A stretch of 64,000 bases of DNA, from positions 98,210,001-98,274,000 of the forward strand of contig CM059431.1 of assembly GCA_030390025.1 (NCBI GenBank), in the 5' to 3' direction. Every line of letters starts with the position of its first letter. Within the stretch, counting starts at the first letter, position 1. Under the pieces are notes generated by a model. The model had not been told where the DNA came from. It ran no database searches and was given only the letters and a program-made list of their open reading frames with translations. This document shows, in pieces, positions 11,776-19,510 of the stretch. The stretch comes from Squalus acanthias (taxonomy: Eukaryota). The translations under genes were made by a program, and so were the position numbers.

Positions 11776-13214
11776 GTGGCTCAGTGGGCAGCACTCTCGC
11801 TTCTGAGTCAGAAGGTCGTGGGTTCGAGCCCCACTCCAGAGACTTGAGCACAGAATCCAGGCTGACACTCCAGTGCAGTGCTGAGGGAGTGCTGTAATAT
11901 CGGAGGGGCAGTACTGAGGGAGTGCCGCACTGTCGGAGGGGCAGTACTGAGGGAGTGCCGCACTGTCGGAGGGGCAGTACTGAGGGAGCGCCGCACTGTC
12001 GGAGGGGCTGTACTGAGGGAGTGCCGCACTGTCGGAGGGGCAGTACTGAGGGAGTGCCGCACTGTCGGAGGGGCAGTACTGAGGGAGCGCCGCACTGTCG
12101 GAGGGGCAGTACTGAGGGAGTGCCGCACTGTCGGAGGGGCAGTACTGAGGGAGTGCCGCACTGTCGGAGGGGCAGTACTGAGGGAGTGCCGCACTGTCGG
12201 AGGGGCAGTACTGAGGGAGTGCCGCACTGTCGGAGGGGCAGTACTGAGGGAGCGCCGCACTGTCGGAGGGGCAGTACTGAGGGAGTGCCACACTGTCGGA
12301 GGGGCAGTACTGAGGGAGTGCAGCACTGTCGGAGGGGCAGTACTGAGGGAGCGCTGCACTGTCGGAGGGACAGTACTGAGGGGGCGCCGCACTGTCGGAG
12401 GGGCAGTACTGAGGGAGTGCCGCACTGTAGGAGGGGCAGTACTGAGGGAGCGCTGCACTGTCGGAGGGGCAGTACTGAGGGAGCGCCGCACTGTCGGAGG
12501 GGCAGTACTGAGGGAGCGCTGCACTGTCGGAGGGGCAGTACTGAGAGAGTGCCGCACTGTCGGAGGGACAGTACTGAGGGAGCGCCGCACTGTCGGAGGG
12601 GCAGTACTGAGGGAGCGCTGCACTGTCGGAGGGGCAGTACTGAGGGAGCGCCGCACTGTCGGAGGGGCAGTACTGAGGGAGCGCTGCACTGTTGGAGGGG
12701 CAGTACTGAGGGAGCGCTGCACTGTCAGAGGGGCAGTACTGAGGGAGCGCTGCACTGTCGGAGGGGCAGTACTGAGGGAGCGCTGCACTGTCGGAGGGGC
12801 AGTACTGAGGGAGCGCCGCACTGTCAGAGGGGCAGTACTGAGGGAGCGCTGCACTGTCAGAGGGGCAGTACTGAGGGAGCGCTGCACTGTCGGAGGGGCC
12901 TTCTTTTCAATGAGACGTTAAACCGAGGCCTCGTCTGCTCTCTCAGGTGGACGTAAAAGATCCCATGGCAGTATTTCGAAGAAGAGCAGGGGAGTTCTCC
13001 CCGGTGTCCTGGCTAATATTTATCCCTCAACCAACATCACTGAAACAGATTATCTGGTCATTATCACATTGTTGTTTGTGGGATCTTGCTGTGCATAAAG
13101 TGGCTACCGCGTTTCCTACATTACATCAGTGACCACACTTCAGATGTACTTCATTGGCTGTAAAGCGCTTTGGGACGCCCTGAGGTCGTGAAAGGCCCAA
13201 ATCTTTCTTTCTTC
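11776..13214 (+). mobile_element. near full-length SacSINE1/DeuSINE-like tRNA-derived SINE with internal minisatellite expansion
   Basis: A box TGGCTCAGTGG, B box GGTTCGAGCCC, Deu-like core (GATGAGACGTTAAACCGAGG-like..TCTCAGGTGGACGTAAAAGATCCCATGGC..GAAGAAGAGCAGGGGAGTTCTCCCC) and L2-like tail. Family name is from recall. Confidence 0.8.
11875..12898. repeat. 33-bp minisatellite inside the SINE, ~31 copies
   Basis: Unit CAGTACTGAGGGAGYGCYGCACTGTCGGAGGGG; the 11-codon period explains the 243-359 aa ORFs. Confidence 0.95.
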
Positions 13215-13800: not shown

Positions 13801-14181
13801 CATTGGTAAAGGACTTTTGTTGTATTTTCAGTTTCTGCTGCTGAGAATTGTACACATCTGGCAACGTGTTTAAACAAAGCAGCTGTCACATCCTTGTTGG
13901 CCGATAGATAGCGAATTGGCCAGGTCCGAGTCTATCCCTAGAATGGCCCCATTGCTGGAAGTTCAGGGCTGTGGTAATACCAATTCTCACTGAGATTTTT
14001 GGGGCATATCTGGATCAGACGATGCATTGCCGATGTCAGCAGTCACACTGGGAGTTTCTGTACTCAGACTATACCAGCCAAGTTAGAGATCACATAACCC
14101 CATACGCTGAGGCGGGTGTGCGTGCTACCCACTCCCACCAGACATGAATATCCCGCAGGATGTCAGGCTCGAAGCCCCCAT

Positions 14182-15122
14182 CTCCCCGGCACTGTCTGGA
14201 GCTCCTGTCTCCCCGGGACTGTCTGGAGCTCCTGTCTCCCCGGGACTGTCTGGAGCTCCTGTCTCCCCGGCACTGCCTGGAGCTCCTGTCTCCCCGGGAC
14301 TGTCTGGAGCTCCTGTCTCCCCGGGACTGTCTGGAGCTCCTGTCTCCCCGGGACTGTCTGGAGCTCCTGTCTCCCCGGGACTGTCTGGAGCTCCTGTCTC
14401 CCCGGGACTGTCTGGAGCTCCTGTCTCCCCGGGACTGTCTGGAGCTCCTGTCTCCCCGGGACTGTCTGGAGCTCCTGTCTCCCCGGGACTGTCTGGAGCT
14501 CCTGTCTCCCCGGGACTGTCTGGAGCTCCTGTCTCCCCGGGACTGTCTGGAGCTCCTGTCTCCCCGGGACTGTCTGGAGCTCCTGTCTCCCCGGGACTGT
14601 CTGGAGCTCCTGTCTCCCCGGCACTGTCTGGAGCTCCTGTCTCCCCGGGACTGTCTGGAGCTCCTGTCTCCCCGGGACTGTCTGGAGCTCCTGTCTCCAC
14701 TCCCCGGGACTGTCTGGAGCTCCTGTCTCCCCGGGACTGTCTGGAGCTCCTGTCTCCCCGGGACTGTCTGGAGCTCCTGTCTCCCCGGGACTGTCTGGAG
14801 CTCCTGTCTCCCCGGGACTGTCTGGAGCTCCTGTCTCCCCGGGACTGTCTGGAGCTCCTGTCTCCCCAGGACTGTCTGGAGCTCCTGTCTCCCTGGGACT
14901 GTCTGGAGCTCCTGTCTCCCCGGGACTGTCTGGAGCTCCTGTCTCCCCGGGACTGTCTGGAGCTCCTGTCTCCCCGGGACTGTCTGGAGCTCCTGTCTCC
15001 CCGGGACTGTCTGGAGCTCCTGTCTCCCTGGGACTGTCTGGAGCTCCTGTCTCCCCGGGACTGTCTGGAGCTCCTGTCTCCCCGGGACTGTCTGGAGCTC
15101 CTGTCTCCACTCCCCGGGACAG
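14182..15122. repeat. 27-bp GC-rich minisatellite, ~35 copies
   Basis: Unit CTCCCCGGGACTGTCTGGAGCTCCTGT; stop-free, so long ORFs appear on both strands; 5-bp insertion variants at ~14697 and ~15107. Confidence 0.95.
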
Positions 15123-15577: not shown

Positions 15578-17131
15578 GCCCCGAAATTTACTGGAGCAGG
15601 ATTTCCAAGAGGTGGGGGAGGAGTTCTGAAGAAGTCCAGGTTTGCCCGAATGCCGAGGAGAACTCCATGGTGTGCGTGTGTTTGTTTAAGCAGGTTCCCT
15701 GCTGGTTGCTCGCCTGATTGACAGGCTCGACTCCCTGTCGGGCGGGGAGCGCTCTGGAGGAGGCCGCAGCACCAGGAGCAGATAGGTCTCCTGCCCTTCG
15801 ATGTAGAGAGCGTGAGGGATAGGGTACAGCGTGGCTTGGAGGGTCGGGGGTGATCGTGGGGGTCAGAGAGAGATCAGGGGCAGAGATGGGGGCTCGGGGT
15901 GATTGTGGGGAGGGTCGGTGATCGCGGGGGTTTAGAGAGAGATCAGGGGCAGAGATGGGGGCTTGGGGTGATTGTAGGGAGGGTTGGAGAGAGATCAGGG
16001 GCGGAGATGGGGGCTCGGGGTGATTGTGGAGAGGGTCAGTGATTGCGGGGGTTTAGAGAGCGATCAGGGGCAGAGATGGGGGCTCGGGGTGATTGTGGAG
16101 AGGGTCAGTGATCGCGGGGGTTTAGAGAGAGATCAGGGGCAGAGATGGGGGCTCGGGGTGATTGTGGAGAGGGTCAGTGATCGCGGGGGTTTAGAGAGAG
16201 ATCAGGGGCAGAGATGGGGGCTCGGGGTGATTGTGGAGAGGGTCAGTGATCGCGGGGGTTTAGAGAGAGATCAGGGACAGAGATGGGGGCTCGGGGTGAT
16301 TGTGGAGAGGGTCAGTGATCGCGGGGGTTTAGAGAGAGATCAGGGGCAGAGATGGGGGCTCGGGGTGATTGTGGAGAGGGTCGGTGATCGCGGGGGGTTA
16401 GAGAGAGATCAGGGGCAGAGATGGGGGCTCAGGGTGATTGTGGAGAGGGTCGGTGATCGCGGGGGTTTAGAGAGAGATCAGGGGCAGAGATGGGGGCTCG
16501 GGGTGATTGTGGAGAGGGTCGGTGATCGCGGGGGTTTAGAGAGAGATCAGGGGCAGAGATGGGGGCTCGGGGTGATTGTGGAGAGGGTCGGTGATCGCGG
16601 GGGTTTAGAGAGAGATCAGGGGCAGAGATGGGGGCTCGGGGTGATTGTGGAGAGGGTCGGTGATCGCGGGAGTTTAGAGAGAGATCAGGGGCAGAGATGG
16701 GGGGTCGGAAGGGTCGGTGATCGCAGGGGTGGGTCGGTGATCGTGGGGGGAGGGGGGTTTCGATTGCCAGGGGGTTCGATTGTGGGGTGGTGCGGGGGGG
16801 AAGCTGGTTAGCTTGCGGGGTCAGGGAGAAGCAATCCTGTTCCGCCTGGCCCACAAGCAGTGCTGGAAAGGCACATACGTCTTCCATGCAGCAGTCCTCA
16901 CCTCCCGGGACTGGGAAACCCGGCCGGCCAGGGTTTAAGCCTGAAACAGATAAAATCTGAGGCACGCAGCCTGATTGAAATAGTTAAATGAGCGACCCGC
17001 CTCCTGGGAGCGGGTTGTTTGCCCACCCTCCCCCCGTCTTGCCTACGGGCGGGTTCGAGGCGCGTTGGGTTCGGATTTGAGATTTTTTACATTTTAACCT
17101 CCCACCCGACCTAGGGGGTTAAAATTACCTC
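15578..17131. mobile_element. probable GC-rich non-autonomous DNA element hosting the 69-bp array
   Basis: GC-rich block with ends GCCCCGAAATTT.. and ..AAAATTACCTC|CAG resembling the Harbinger-like MITE ends; TIR and TSD not clean. Confidence 0.35.
15865..16725. repeat. 69-bp G-rich minisatellite, ~12 copies
   Basis: GATCAGGGGC at 16131 and 16200; 23-codon period (ERDQGQRWGLGVIVERVSDRGGL). Confidence 0.95.
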
Positions 17132-17224: not shown

Positions 17225-17430
17225 TGTTATGCTGAGTCAGGAAGTGCAGAATCTTCGCATCTTGTTCTACTATAAACTCAGTGACCTCCTTCAAATCCAC
17301 TCCATTACCAAAGTCGCTTCCATCCACTTCCGCAACATTGTCCATCTCCGTTCCCATCTCTCCCCATCGCTCCCATCTGCCACCAAACCTGTAGTCCATG
17401 TCCTCATCACCTCGAGGCTTGACTTCGCGA
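17225..17430 (+). mobile_element. older, diverged L2 ORF2 fragment
   Basis: IHSITKVASIHFRNI..LRSHLS..VHVLITSRLD, an L2 ORF2 post-RT motif. Confidence 0.7.
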
Positions 17431-17976
17431 ATGACTTTCGACTCAGCCTCCCAACATCAACTGACCACGAGTTTCTAAATTGTCTCTAAATTGTCAGACT
17501 GTTTGTCCGGCATCCAGGTCTGGATGAGCAGAAATTTCCTCCAACTACATATTGGGAAGACGGAAGCCATTGTTTTCGATCCCCGCCACAAACTCAGTTT
17601 CCTCTTCACTGACTCCATCTCTCTCTCTAGCATCTGTCTGAGGCTGAACCACACTGTTCGTACCTTGGTGTCATATCTGACCCTGAAATGAGCTTCTGAC
17701 CCCATATCCACAGCATAACTAAGACCGCCTATTCCACCTCCGTAACATCGCCCGTCTCCGCCCTTGCCTCAGCTCATCTGCTGCTGAAACCCTCATGCAT
17801 GCCTTTGTTACCTCTAGACTTGACTATTCCAACGCACTCCTGGCTGGTATTCCACATTCTACCCTACATAAACTTGAGGTCATCCAAAACTTGGCTGCCC
17901 GTGTCCTAACTCACATCAAGTCCAAAAATGAGAAGTCGCACAACACCAGGTTATAGTCCAACAGATTTATTTAAAA

Positions 17977-18016
17977 TTACAAGCTTTCGGAGCTATCCTG
18001 CCCCTTCTTCAGGTAA
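17977..18016 (-). ncRNA. minimal type I hammerhead ribozyme motif (left arm)
   Basis: Exact reverse complement of 18505-18544. Confidence 0.65.
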
Positions 18017-18504
18017 AGTTACACTGAGTGAATCTACAAAAGTTCACAATATAAACACAGATACTACAGAGATACAATCTTTCCTTACATCAAAGACACA
18101 CCAAGTAAACAGCCAAGACAATGAGATGTGTCCCAGGGGGTCCAACGTGTCAAATCCTGCTGTCTGTAGCCGATCTCTCTCCATATCCCTTCCTCTCTCT
18201 CCGTCTTTTTTGGGGTTTGTATTTTGGGCATATTGCGCATATTAACACAGACATCAAGTATCTGCAGAGATGCAAGAAAGCAGACAAGATTCCGAACCCA
18301 AAATACAAACCCCAAAAAAGACGGAGAGAGAGGAAGGGATATGGAGAGGATATGCAGACAGCAGGTTTTGACACGTTGGACCCCCTGGGACACATCTCAT
18401 TGTCTTGGCTGTGCTCTTGGTGTGTCTTTGATGTAAGGAAAGATTGTATCTCTGTAGTATCTGTGTTTATATCGTGAACTTTTGTAGATTCACTCAGTGT
18501 AACT

Positions 18505-18544
18505 TTACCTGAAGAAGGGGCAGGATAGCTCCGAAAGCTTGTAA
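18505..18544 (+). ncRNA. minimal type I hammerhead ribozyme motif (right arm)
   Basis: TTAC-CTGAAGA-A-GGGGC-AGGATA-GCTCC-GAAA-GC-TT-GTAA: stem I TTAC/GTAA, CUGANGA core, 5-bp stem II, GAAA, palindromic mini stem III (AAGCTT), UH site. Confidence 0.65.
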
Positions 18545-18794
18545 TTTTAAATAAATCTGTTGGACTATAACCTGGTGTTGTGCGACTTCTCATTTTTGTC
18601 CACCCCAGTCCAACGCCGGCATCTCCGCATCATGACATCAAGTCCAATTCATCCATTAACCCTGTGCTCGCTGACTTACATATGCTCCCGGTTAAGCAAT
18701 GCCTCGATTTTAAAATTCTCCTCCTTGTTTTCAAATCCCTCCATGCCCTCGCCCCTCTCTATCTCTATCTCTGTAACCTCCTCCAGCCCAGCTC

Positions 18795-19510
18795 TTGGGT
18801 GTAGGCCATGCTGGCAAGGCCACATTTGTTGCCCATCTTTCGTTGCTCTGAGAAGGGAGTCACATCATTAAGAGTCAACCACATATTGTGGGATTGGACT
18901 CACAGGTAGGCCAGACAGGTTACTGCTTAATCACAGTCCATCCATCAGCTTAAACACCCACTCCCTTCACCACCGGTGTACCGTGGCTGCAGTGTGCACC
19001 ATCTACAAGATGCACTGCAGCAACTCGCCAAGGCTTCTTCGACAGCACCTCCCAAACCTGCGACCTCTACCAACTAGAAGGACAAGGGCAGCAGGCGCAT
19101 GGGAACACCACTACCTCCAAGTTCCCCTCCAAGTCACACACCATCCTGACTTGGAAACATATCAGCCGTTCCTTCATCGTCGCTGGGCCAAAATTCTGGA
19201 ACTCCCTCCCTAACAGTACTGTGGGAGCACCTTCACCACACGGACTGCAGCGGTTCAAGAAGGCGGCTCACCACCACCTTCTCAGGGCAACTAGGGATGG
19301 GCAATAAATGCCGGCCTTGCCAGCGACGCCCACATCCCGAGAATGAATAAAAGAAAGGTTCCCTCAGCTGAGGGACACTAATGAACCAGTTAGGATTCAG
19401 CAAATTTTGCTTGGTTGATTAACCCTTAAACTACTGGATTTATTAAGCTCAATTTCACAACTAACCATCGTGGTATTTGAACTCATAACTCTTCGGGTGA
19501 TTAGCCCAGC
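18795..19510 (-). mobile_element. diverged SINE family B copy, interrupted by a LINE fragment (pieces ~18795-18925 and ~19358-19510)
   Basis: GCTGGCAAGGCC.CATT..TTGCCCATC, TTAAGAGTCAACCACAT, GGACACTAATGAACCAGTT and TTTGAACTCA match family B. Confidence 0.55.
18950..19352 (+). mobile_element. CR1-group LINE 3' fragment (family distinct from the CR1 and L2 copies); probable partner of SINE family B
   Basis: HHRCTVAAVCTIYKMHCSNSPRLLRQHLP..(frameshift) SFIVAGPKFWNSLPNSTVGAPSPHGLQRFKKAAHHHLL; tail GGCCTTGCCAGCGACGCCCACATCCCGAGAATGAATAAAA. Confidence 0.75.

Follow-up and report, generated by a model that had tools for sequence, protein, structure and literature searches.

A palindromic insert with a hammerhead motif on each strand, probably a head-to-head insertion of a shark Penelope-like element

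Within the window, a stretch of 64,000 nucleotides from Squalus acanthias, a decayed LINE fragment that we take to be of the L2 type is split by a palindromic insert. The two arms of the insert, 306 nt (17923-18228) and 302 nt (18297-18598) long, are separated by 68 nt and are identical in 295 of 306 aligned columns, in agreement with the inverted repeat of about 305 bp around a 68-nt loop described in the original prediction. The 11 columns that differ are all within right-arm positions 18348-18473, and seven of them form one cluster (18348-18354 and 18366). The right arm outruns the left by 36 nt (18599-18634); this one-sided tail falls within the 30-40 bp described for the tails of Penelope-like elements (PLEs). 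The direct repeat ACATCAAGTCCAA flanks the insert at 17913-17925 and 18635-18647 and corresponds to a target site duplication (TSD) of 10-13 bp, as the last three nucleotides of the left copy pair equally well as the end of the left arm. In silico excision of the insert together with one repeat copy leaves the host element with one uninterrupted open frame, consistent with the earlier report of an 11-13-bp direct repeat at the insertion site. The host frame has no match in Pfam, and the host fragment has a very high contig depth in shark sequencing runs. The features of the locus are:

17400..18790, plus strand: host, a decayed high-copy LINE fragment split by the insert (outer limits approximate)
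17913..17925, plus strand: left TSD copy, 10-13 bp, the last 3 nt of which may belong to the arm; host frame regained on excision
17923..18228, minus strand: left arm, an inverted tail-less pLTR copy that ends on the outside at the equivalent of 18598, the inner tail boundary
17977..18016, minus strand: minimal type I hammerhead, identical to the one in the right arm
18229..18296, plus strand: loop, codons ~20-41 of a shark PLE ORF, probably of Neptune type (18232-18294 are codons 20-40)
18297..18598, plus strand: right arm, a sense-oriented pLTR whose source is probably a non-autonomous derivative
18299..18361, plus strand: weak similarity to ORF codons 44-64, suggestive of a continuation that may be degenerate (shuffle tests)
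18444..18472, plus strand: segments complementary to the loop, pairing with 18239-18251 and 18262-18275
18505..18544, plus strand: minimal hammerhead of type I, predicted to cut after U18540; a stem III would form in trans only, via a palindromic AGCU
18599..18634, plus strand: one-sided PLE tail, 36 nt, the last bases of which are the ORF start ATG (18632-18634)
18635..18647, plus strand: right TSD copy

Loop and tail originate from the start of a shark PLE ORF, and the insert is thus Penelope-derived, as predicted. A HMMER search with a 30-residue loop query returned four matches: the top three (P0001-P0003) are repetitive proteins whose scores add up from weak stretches and which were set aside; the remaining one, P0004 of the whale shark, is identical to the translation of 18232-18294 in 19 of 21 residues. 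Four other shark proteins share 17-18 of the 21 residues with the loop peptide and P0007 shares 13. A search started from P0004 identified 19 longer proteins, mostly from sharks, in which the loop corresponds to ORF codons 20-40. P0007 is a full ORF of 881 residues with a loop-like N-terminus, a reverse transcriptase (RT) domain (RVT_1), DKG, YIDD and a CX4CxxC linker (residues 743-751); its C-terminus is GIY-YIG-like by atlas neighbours and features and by predicted structure, with the Pfam scan silent there. A CX2-5CxxC linker between RT and endonuclease is described as a mark of Neptune that is common to Nematis (PMC8557442), and the parent ORF would accordingly fall into the Neptune clade, a label taken from the linker of P0007 rather than from an RT tree. 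The translation of the tail (...RHLRIM) corresponds to RHLHIM right before the start methionine of P0004 and P0006, and for this reason we place the end of the tail on the ORF ATG.

The insert agrees with the shark Neptune ORFs (P0004, P0007, and P0006 and P0011 of Heptranchias) in that the loop equals codons 20-40 and the tail reads as the residues preceding the methionine, but it leaves the ORF after codon 41, while other copies continue in frame: in run X2, the loose end of one contig continues beyond 18296 with the next ORF residues. Identity drops from 90% in the loop to at best 43% in the next 21 codons. When the placement of 18299-18361 is fixed to the collinear position (ORF codons 44-64), its score is reached by none of 600 shuffles; with unrestricted placement it is reached by 15 of 1000 and equalled by an antisense match of the left arm, and a degenerate continuation of the ORF is therefore suggestive only. 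Loop peptides had no match in Pfam, the 49-aa and 122-aa frames of the window retrieved nothing in word-based searches of proteins and hence no record spanning either arm/loop junction, a sequence search of the PDB with P0007 returned 0 matches, and no loci emerged from metagenome, viral or prokaryote collections scanned with DNA patterns and proteins. The longer of these frames (18109-18477, plus strand) is 122 codons in length, crosses both arms and the loop, and shares its reading frame with the PLE ORF fragment; it has no homologue in the word-based protein search and is probably a product of chance. Three Heptranchias gene models, annotated as chitinase-3-like (P0011), an epsin-2 isoform (P0014) and an Ig-domain protein (P0021), include pieces of the PLE ORF, either by annotation artefact or by exonisation.

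According to Craig et al. 2021 (PMC8557442), PLEs are typically arranged with an inverted 5'-truncated copy and a 30-40-bp tail at one end, and rotifer Pen2a is described with an inverted pLTR, a 31-bp tail and a 9-10-bp TSD (Arkhipova et al. 2013, PMC3846280); inverted pLTR arrangements, which the original prediction had named as known, are indeed a published PLE pattern. With the complex insertions of EN+ PLEs the shark insert shares the head-to-head copy, the 36-nt tail at one end, the 10-13-bp TSD and a tail that reaches the ORF start; it differs from them by having no RT or endonuclease coding sequence, only ~21 central ORF codons, and arms that start at the same base. In its inverted copy, one-sided tail, variable TSD and PLE ORF homology, it has the structure of an insertion of this kind.

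The best explanation, to which we assign a probability of roughly 0.8, is a single insertion by a shark Neptune-type PLE in the usual head-to-head form. The GIY-YIG nuclease would cut both target strands 10-13 bp apart, and each cut end would prime reverse transcription inside a PLE RNA: one cDNA, begun at an outer start site (18634), would provide tail, arm and loop, the other, begun at an inner start site (18598), would provide the tail-less inverted arm, and the two 5'-truncated cDNAs would be joined head-to-head. The palindrome would be the product of the insertion and not the mobile unit. The template is probably non-autonomous, because the ORF start is fused to the pLTR with neither RT nor nuclease, and it would be an internally deleted, retrozyme-like derivative that probably keeps the ORF start and the hammerhead pLTR. 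Of the non-autonomous family originally suggested, the parent thus remains plausible, as a linear or tandem pLTR derivative rather than as a palindrome.

The two-primer mechanism is modelled on the biochemistry of PAc, a Poseidon element of Anolis and thus of a different clade, for which Frangieh et al. 2024 (PMC11167929) describe a tail that spans the distance from one internal RT start site to a second, and a protein that cuts and extends both strands and needs sequence downstream of the RT start. Like PAc, the shark insert has two end points flanking the tail and a hammerhead in the pLTR, and both strands would have been extended. The two differ in that the PAc ribozyme overlaps the start codon and the PAc RT starts are located within the ORF, whereas the shark ribozyme lies ~90 nt upstream of the ATG and the insert has its outer end at this ATG. 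The PAc ribozyme is reported to need the protein and to be dispensable for insertion in vitro (PMC11167929).

Other copies were studied in the contigs of four runs (X1, X2, X6 and X19) among 20 public runs containing part of 18229-18640. Contigs were compared at 85% identity with a reference of 18229-18760, which extends from the loop rightwards and has the left arm outside; the runs may come from other individuals or species, and summed depths are not used as copy numbers. All parts of the insert within this reference are multi-copy in X1, X2 and X6, and X19 is without the loop. The core of ribozyme and tail exceeds the loop in depth by a factor of ~90-1900, and the single contigs listed mostly have depths of 3-22. 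The family ends at both tail boundaries: of the best 15 of 38 joints, 13 exit the element into other host-repeat positions, nine of them at 18586-18598 and four at 18632-18635, with joint sides of only 20-30 nt. The two exit clusters correspond to both ends of the insert, as the two-start-site model would predict. One contig has a head-to-tail junction at which 18626 is followed by 18367, and a loose end of four contigs joins a CATG-containing stretch to the element body; head-to-tail forms thus appear to exist among the relatives. In the loose ends listed before 18365-18367, which represent the main family, by far the more abundant one, the upstream sequence differs and starts with CGACACC. 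These seven bases could represent ORF codons 4-6 (I-D-T), in which case the main family would be a ~310-nt unit with no loop.

The contigs also bear on the possibility that arm, loop and arm together make up a non-autonomous family whose members are transcribed and inserted anew as intact palindromes, as proposed in the original prediction of a 'hairpin-plus-ribozyme' family moving as a unit. Such a family would agree with the start of both arms at the same loop-adjacent base, with the roughly similar depth of left- and right-type variants at 18348-18354 in X6 (~228-273 of 527), and with depths of loop and inner arm that are of the same order in three runs (ratios of 0.64, 0.77 and 1.39). However, no strand-changing (fold-back) joint is among the best 15 of 38 joints obtained with a reference that begins at loop base 18229, though single-locus joints of depth 13-43 ranked there, and the depth in X1 and X2 drops from 18348 to 18350 by 65-77% and not by half. 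Moreover, the left end is the inner tail boundary, as predicted by fresh priming at two ends, the RT would have to unwind a duplex of ~300 bp, and the sequence downstream of the RT start, which the Anolis protein requires, is host LINE here. As the layout is that of a normal PLE product, we consider a mobile palindrome unlikely on the evidence of these contigs.

If the insert arose by priming at two ends, the two cDNAs could have been copied from different RNAs, and the arms do appear to represent two different multi-copy variants. The left-type state of the cluster at 18348-18354 is found in X6 (four contigs, depth 228) and X2 (one contig), and the right-type state is that of the loose ends of the main family; two RNA templates are for this reason favoured over a snap-back, in which one cDNA or RNA primes itself by folding back and the arms diverge later, by mutation or gene conversion. 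At the inversion point (18228-18243), a repeated GCATATT surrounds the palindrome TGCGCA, and three bases misfit the ORF. Palindromes at such inversion junctions were remarked upon by Arkhipova et al., and the two repeats would suit a snap-back, as was proposed there for rotifer Penelopes (PMC3846280). The concentration of seven of the 11 differences in one cluster speaks against it, as do variant states shared with other copies, which private mutation does not predict and conversion could produce. On balance a snap-back is unlikely; the arm variants could also stem from gene conversion or from a tandem template.

Near-perfect palindromes can further arise as fold-back chimeras in library preparation or assembly, and among the rows listed no contig crosses the exact flank junction, in runs that may stem from other individuals or species. 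Against this stand the 11 differing columns, with variants known from other copies, the one-sided tail, and the clean TSD with its regained host frame, and we regard an artefact as extremely improbable.

Several observations count against the best explanation, the single head-to-head insertion: the left arm ends at the very base at which the ORF-like loop passes into the right arm, contig depth dips at the junction of loop and right arm, and the ribozyme has no match in Rfam and shows no two-sided covariation among the contigs. By a rough estimate, random truncation would place the end of the left arm there in about 1 in 100-300 cases. The coincidence could reflect either a shared cDNA stop followed by one jump, or a continuous unit and chance, or a palindrome family. 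The first of these is a sub-question within the single insertion and means that the loop was absent from the template: both cDNAs would have stopped near 18297, at an RNA 5' end or a pause, and one would have jumped at a homologous position to an ORF-start RNA and copied 68 nt. A jump explains the coincident end of the left arm, the dip in summed contig depth at the loop-arm junction to 0.29-0.72 of the neighbouring values, and the fall in protein identity beyond the loop (from 90% to 43% at best over the next 21 codons). In contrast, the weak collinear ORF similarity crosses the junction, the arm contains segments complementary to exactly the loop, and the depths of loop, inner arm and antisense segment are alike, while that of the main family body differs from them 3-130-fold. 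Collinearity, complementarity and similar depths fit one linked subfamily unit; a jump is possible, but we lean against it.

The complementarity between the loop and 18444-18472 takes the form of two helices, with 27 pairs of a probability >0.5 and a duplex energy of -47.4 kcal/mol. Shuffled loops attain this energy in 13 of 1000 cases and shuffled arms in 1 of 1000, and 36 of 2000 shuffles equal the local alignment; weaker pairing of the loop is present at ~18400-18417. Position 18455 is a C in 79-97% of the depth in X1, X2 and X6, which turns a G.U pair into G-C, and a G>T exchange at 18457 (19% in X2 and the sole contig in X19) breaks an end pair of the helix. Loop, arm and tail together do not fold better than shuffles (z +0.2, 35/60), which counts against a strongly structured RNA, and the pairing between pLTR and ORF start, noticed post hoc, may be the relic of an older inversion. 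A more elaborate model, which we put forward tentatively and regard as somewhat unlikely, is that a PLE dimer primes both ends on two retrozyme-like Neptune RNAs, in which a retained helix between the pLTR (18444-18472) and codons 22-34 encloses hammerhead, tail and start codon and serves as RT-loading structure. Conservation of this helix would name a cis element for the Neptune RT. No description of the shark family or of a pLTR-ORF-start helix was found in the literature covered, with subscription papers, Repbase and the supplements of the retrozyme preprint outside its scope. A 9-nt match between TSD and loop (18251-18259) was dismissed as chance, as 16 of 512 host 13-mers equal it.

Each arm contains one hammerhead motif. 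On the plus strand, stem I is formed by 18505-08/18541-44 and stem II by 18517-21/18528-32, with C3 at 18509, GAAA, the palindromic AGCU at 18536-39 and U17 at 18540; the core (CUGANGA/GAAA/UH) and helices I and II are all present. In the whole window of 64 kb, a descriptor of minimal hammerheads matches just two sites, 18505 on the plus strand, in agreement with the coordinates given in the original prediction, and 18016 on the minus strand; it matches none of 5000 dinucleotide shuffles of the arm. Rfam, the other half of the model check that had been suggested, gave no hammerhead match at E<=10 and only matches to generic miRNA hairpins or by chance, a silence that is unsurprising for a hammerhead that has no helix III. 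The motif is of the minimal type I form of PLEs, with a predicted cut after U18540, as had been recognised. Like metazoan PLE hammerheads as they are described, it has a full core, a helix I of 4 bp, an unpaired base before helix II, G10.1-C11.1 and palindromic helix III positions; it differs from the Schistosoma families in a helix II of 5 bp instead of 7-8 bp, and its cleavage is a prediction. Schistosoma has pairs of minimal hammerheads on opposite strands, 100-700 bp apart, and for hammerheads of this type Cervera and de la Pena 2014 (PMC4209133) report no cleavage as monomers and weak cleavage as dimers.

Among the contigs of the four runs (at least 85% identity), two of 32 listed substitutions fall into 18505-18544 and both are tolerated: one changes G.U to A-U in helix II and the other U17 to C. 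In other copies, loose ends and indels reveal variation at position N7 and in loop II, and no two-sided covariation was seen in the stems among these contigs. The arm differences do lie nearer the loop and leave the outer 125 nt clean, as was noticed originally, yet with about five clusters this has P ~0.07 and is not significant; the identity of the ribozymes across arms was, at the same P ~0.07, discarded as a sign of selection.

Helix II has a pair probability of 0.99 and helix I of ~0.25, and the folding stability of the hammerhead region is no better than that of shuffles (z -0.45). In an in silico dimer, with tertiary contacts excluded, the double-hammerhead fold has -17.3 kcal/mol and the best dimer fold -28.5 kcal/mol, so that pairing in trans also places the double hammerhead 11 kcal/mol above the best alternative. 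The whole hairpin folds at -567 kcal/mol. A competition between dsRNA formation and self-cleavage had been proposed. It is probably one-sided, as transcription of either strand produces the antisense arm before the ribozyme, which then probably ends up within the duplex. Both ribozymes are probably silent in read-through RNA, given this order of synthesis, the energy of the hairpin, the absence of helix III from the monomer and the inability of motifs on opposite strands to dimerise in cis. Host transcripts that contain such insertions may readily supply double-stranded RNA of 300 bp.

Animal retrozymes are argued to be non-autonomous PLE derivatives, with a chondrichthyan average of 363 bp from one species (bioRxiv 10.64898/2026.07.22.740005). 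The insert resembles non-LTR retrozymes, as described there and in PMC7229834, in being short (near 363 bp), non-coding and pLTR-related, in its type I hammerhead and long TSD, and in the head-to-tail junctions among its relatives. Unlike these, it is head-to-head, is without two ribozymes on the same strand, would not release a circle and has a hammerhead of the minimal PLE form; retrozyme tandems have at least two head-to-tail units with ribozymes on the same strand, and the locus has one ribozyme per strand.

The insert is one more fold-back PLE stump, and both the combination of inverted pLTR, tail and TSD and hammerheads on opposite strands are already published. The origin of the inverted half of PLEs is accounted for in two ways, by snap-back on an antisense template (PMC3846280) and by extension of both strands as seen in vitro (PMC11167929). 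Young shark palindromes that have different subfamily variants in each arm could decide between two templates and snap-back by counting: if two templates are used, the arm mismatches across shark palindromes would be a genome-wide readout against snap-back self-priming.

Just right of the host element, 18797-18856 and 19277-19337 are 80-85% complementary and are apparently two copies, in opposite orientation, of one LINE-like 3' end. To the left of the host are three very homogeneous minisatellites with units of 69 bp (15849-16749), 27 bp (14181-15108) and 33 bp (11875-12899), and 24199-63991 is occupied by ~1530 copies of a 26-bp satellite with a strong G skew and a recurring internal irregularity that suggests a higher-order repeat.
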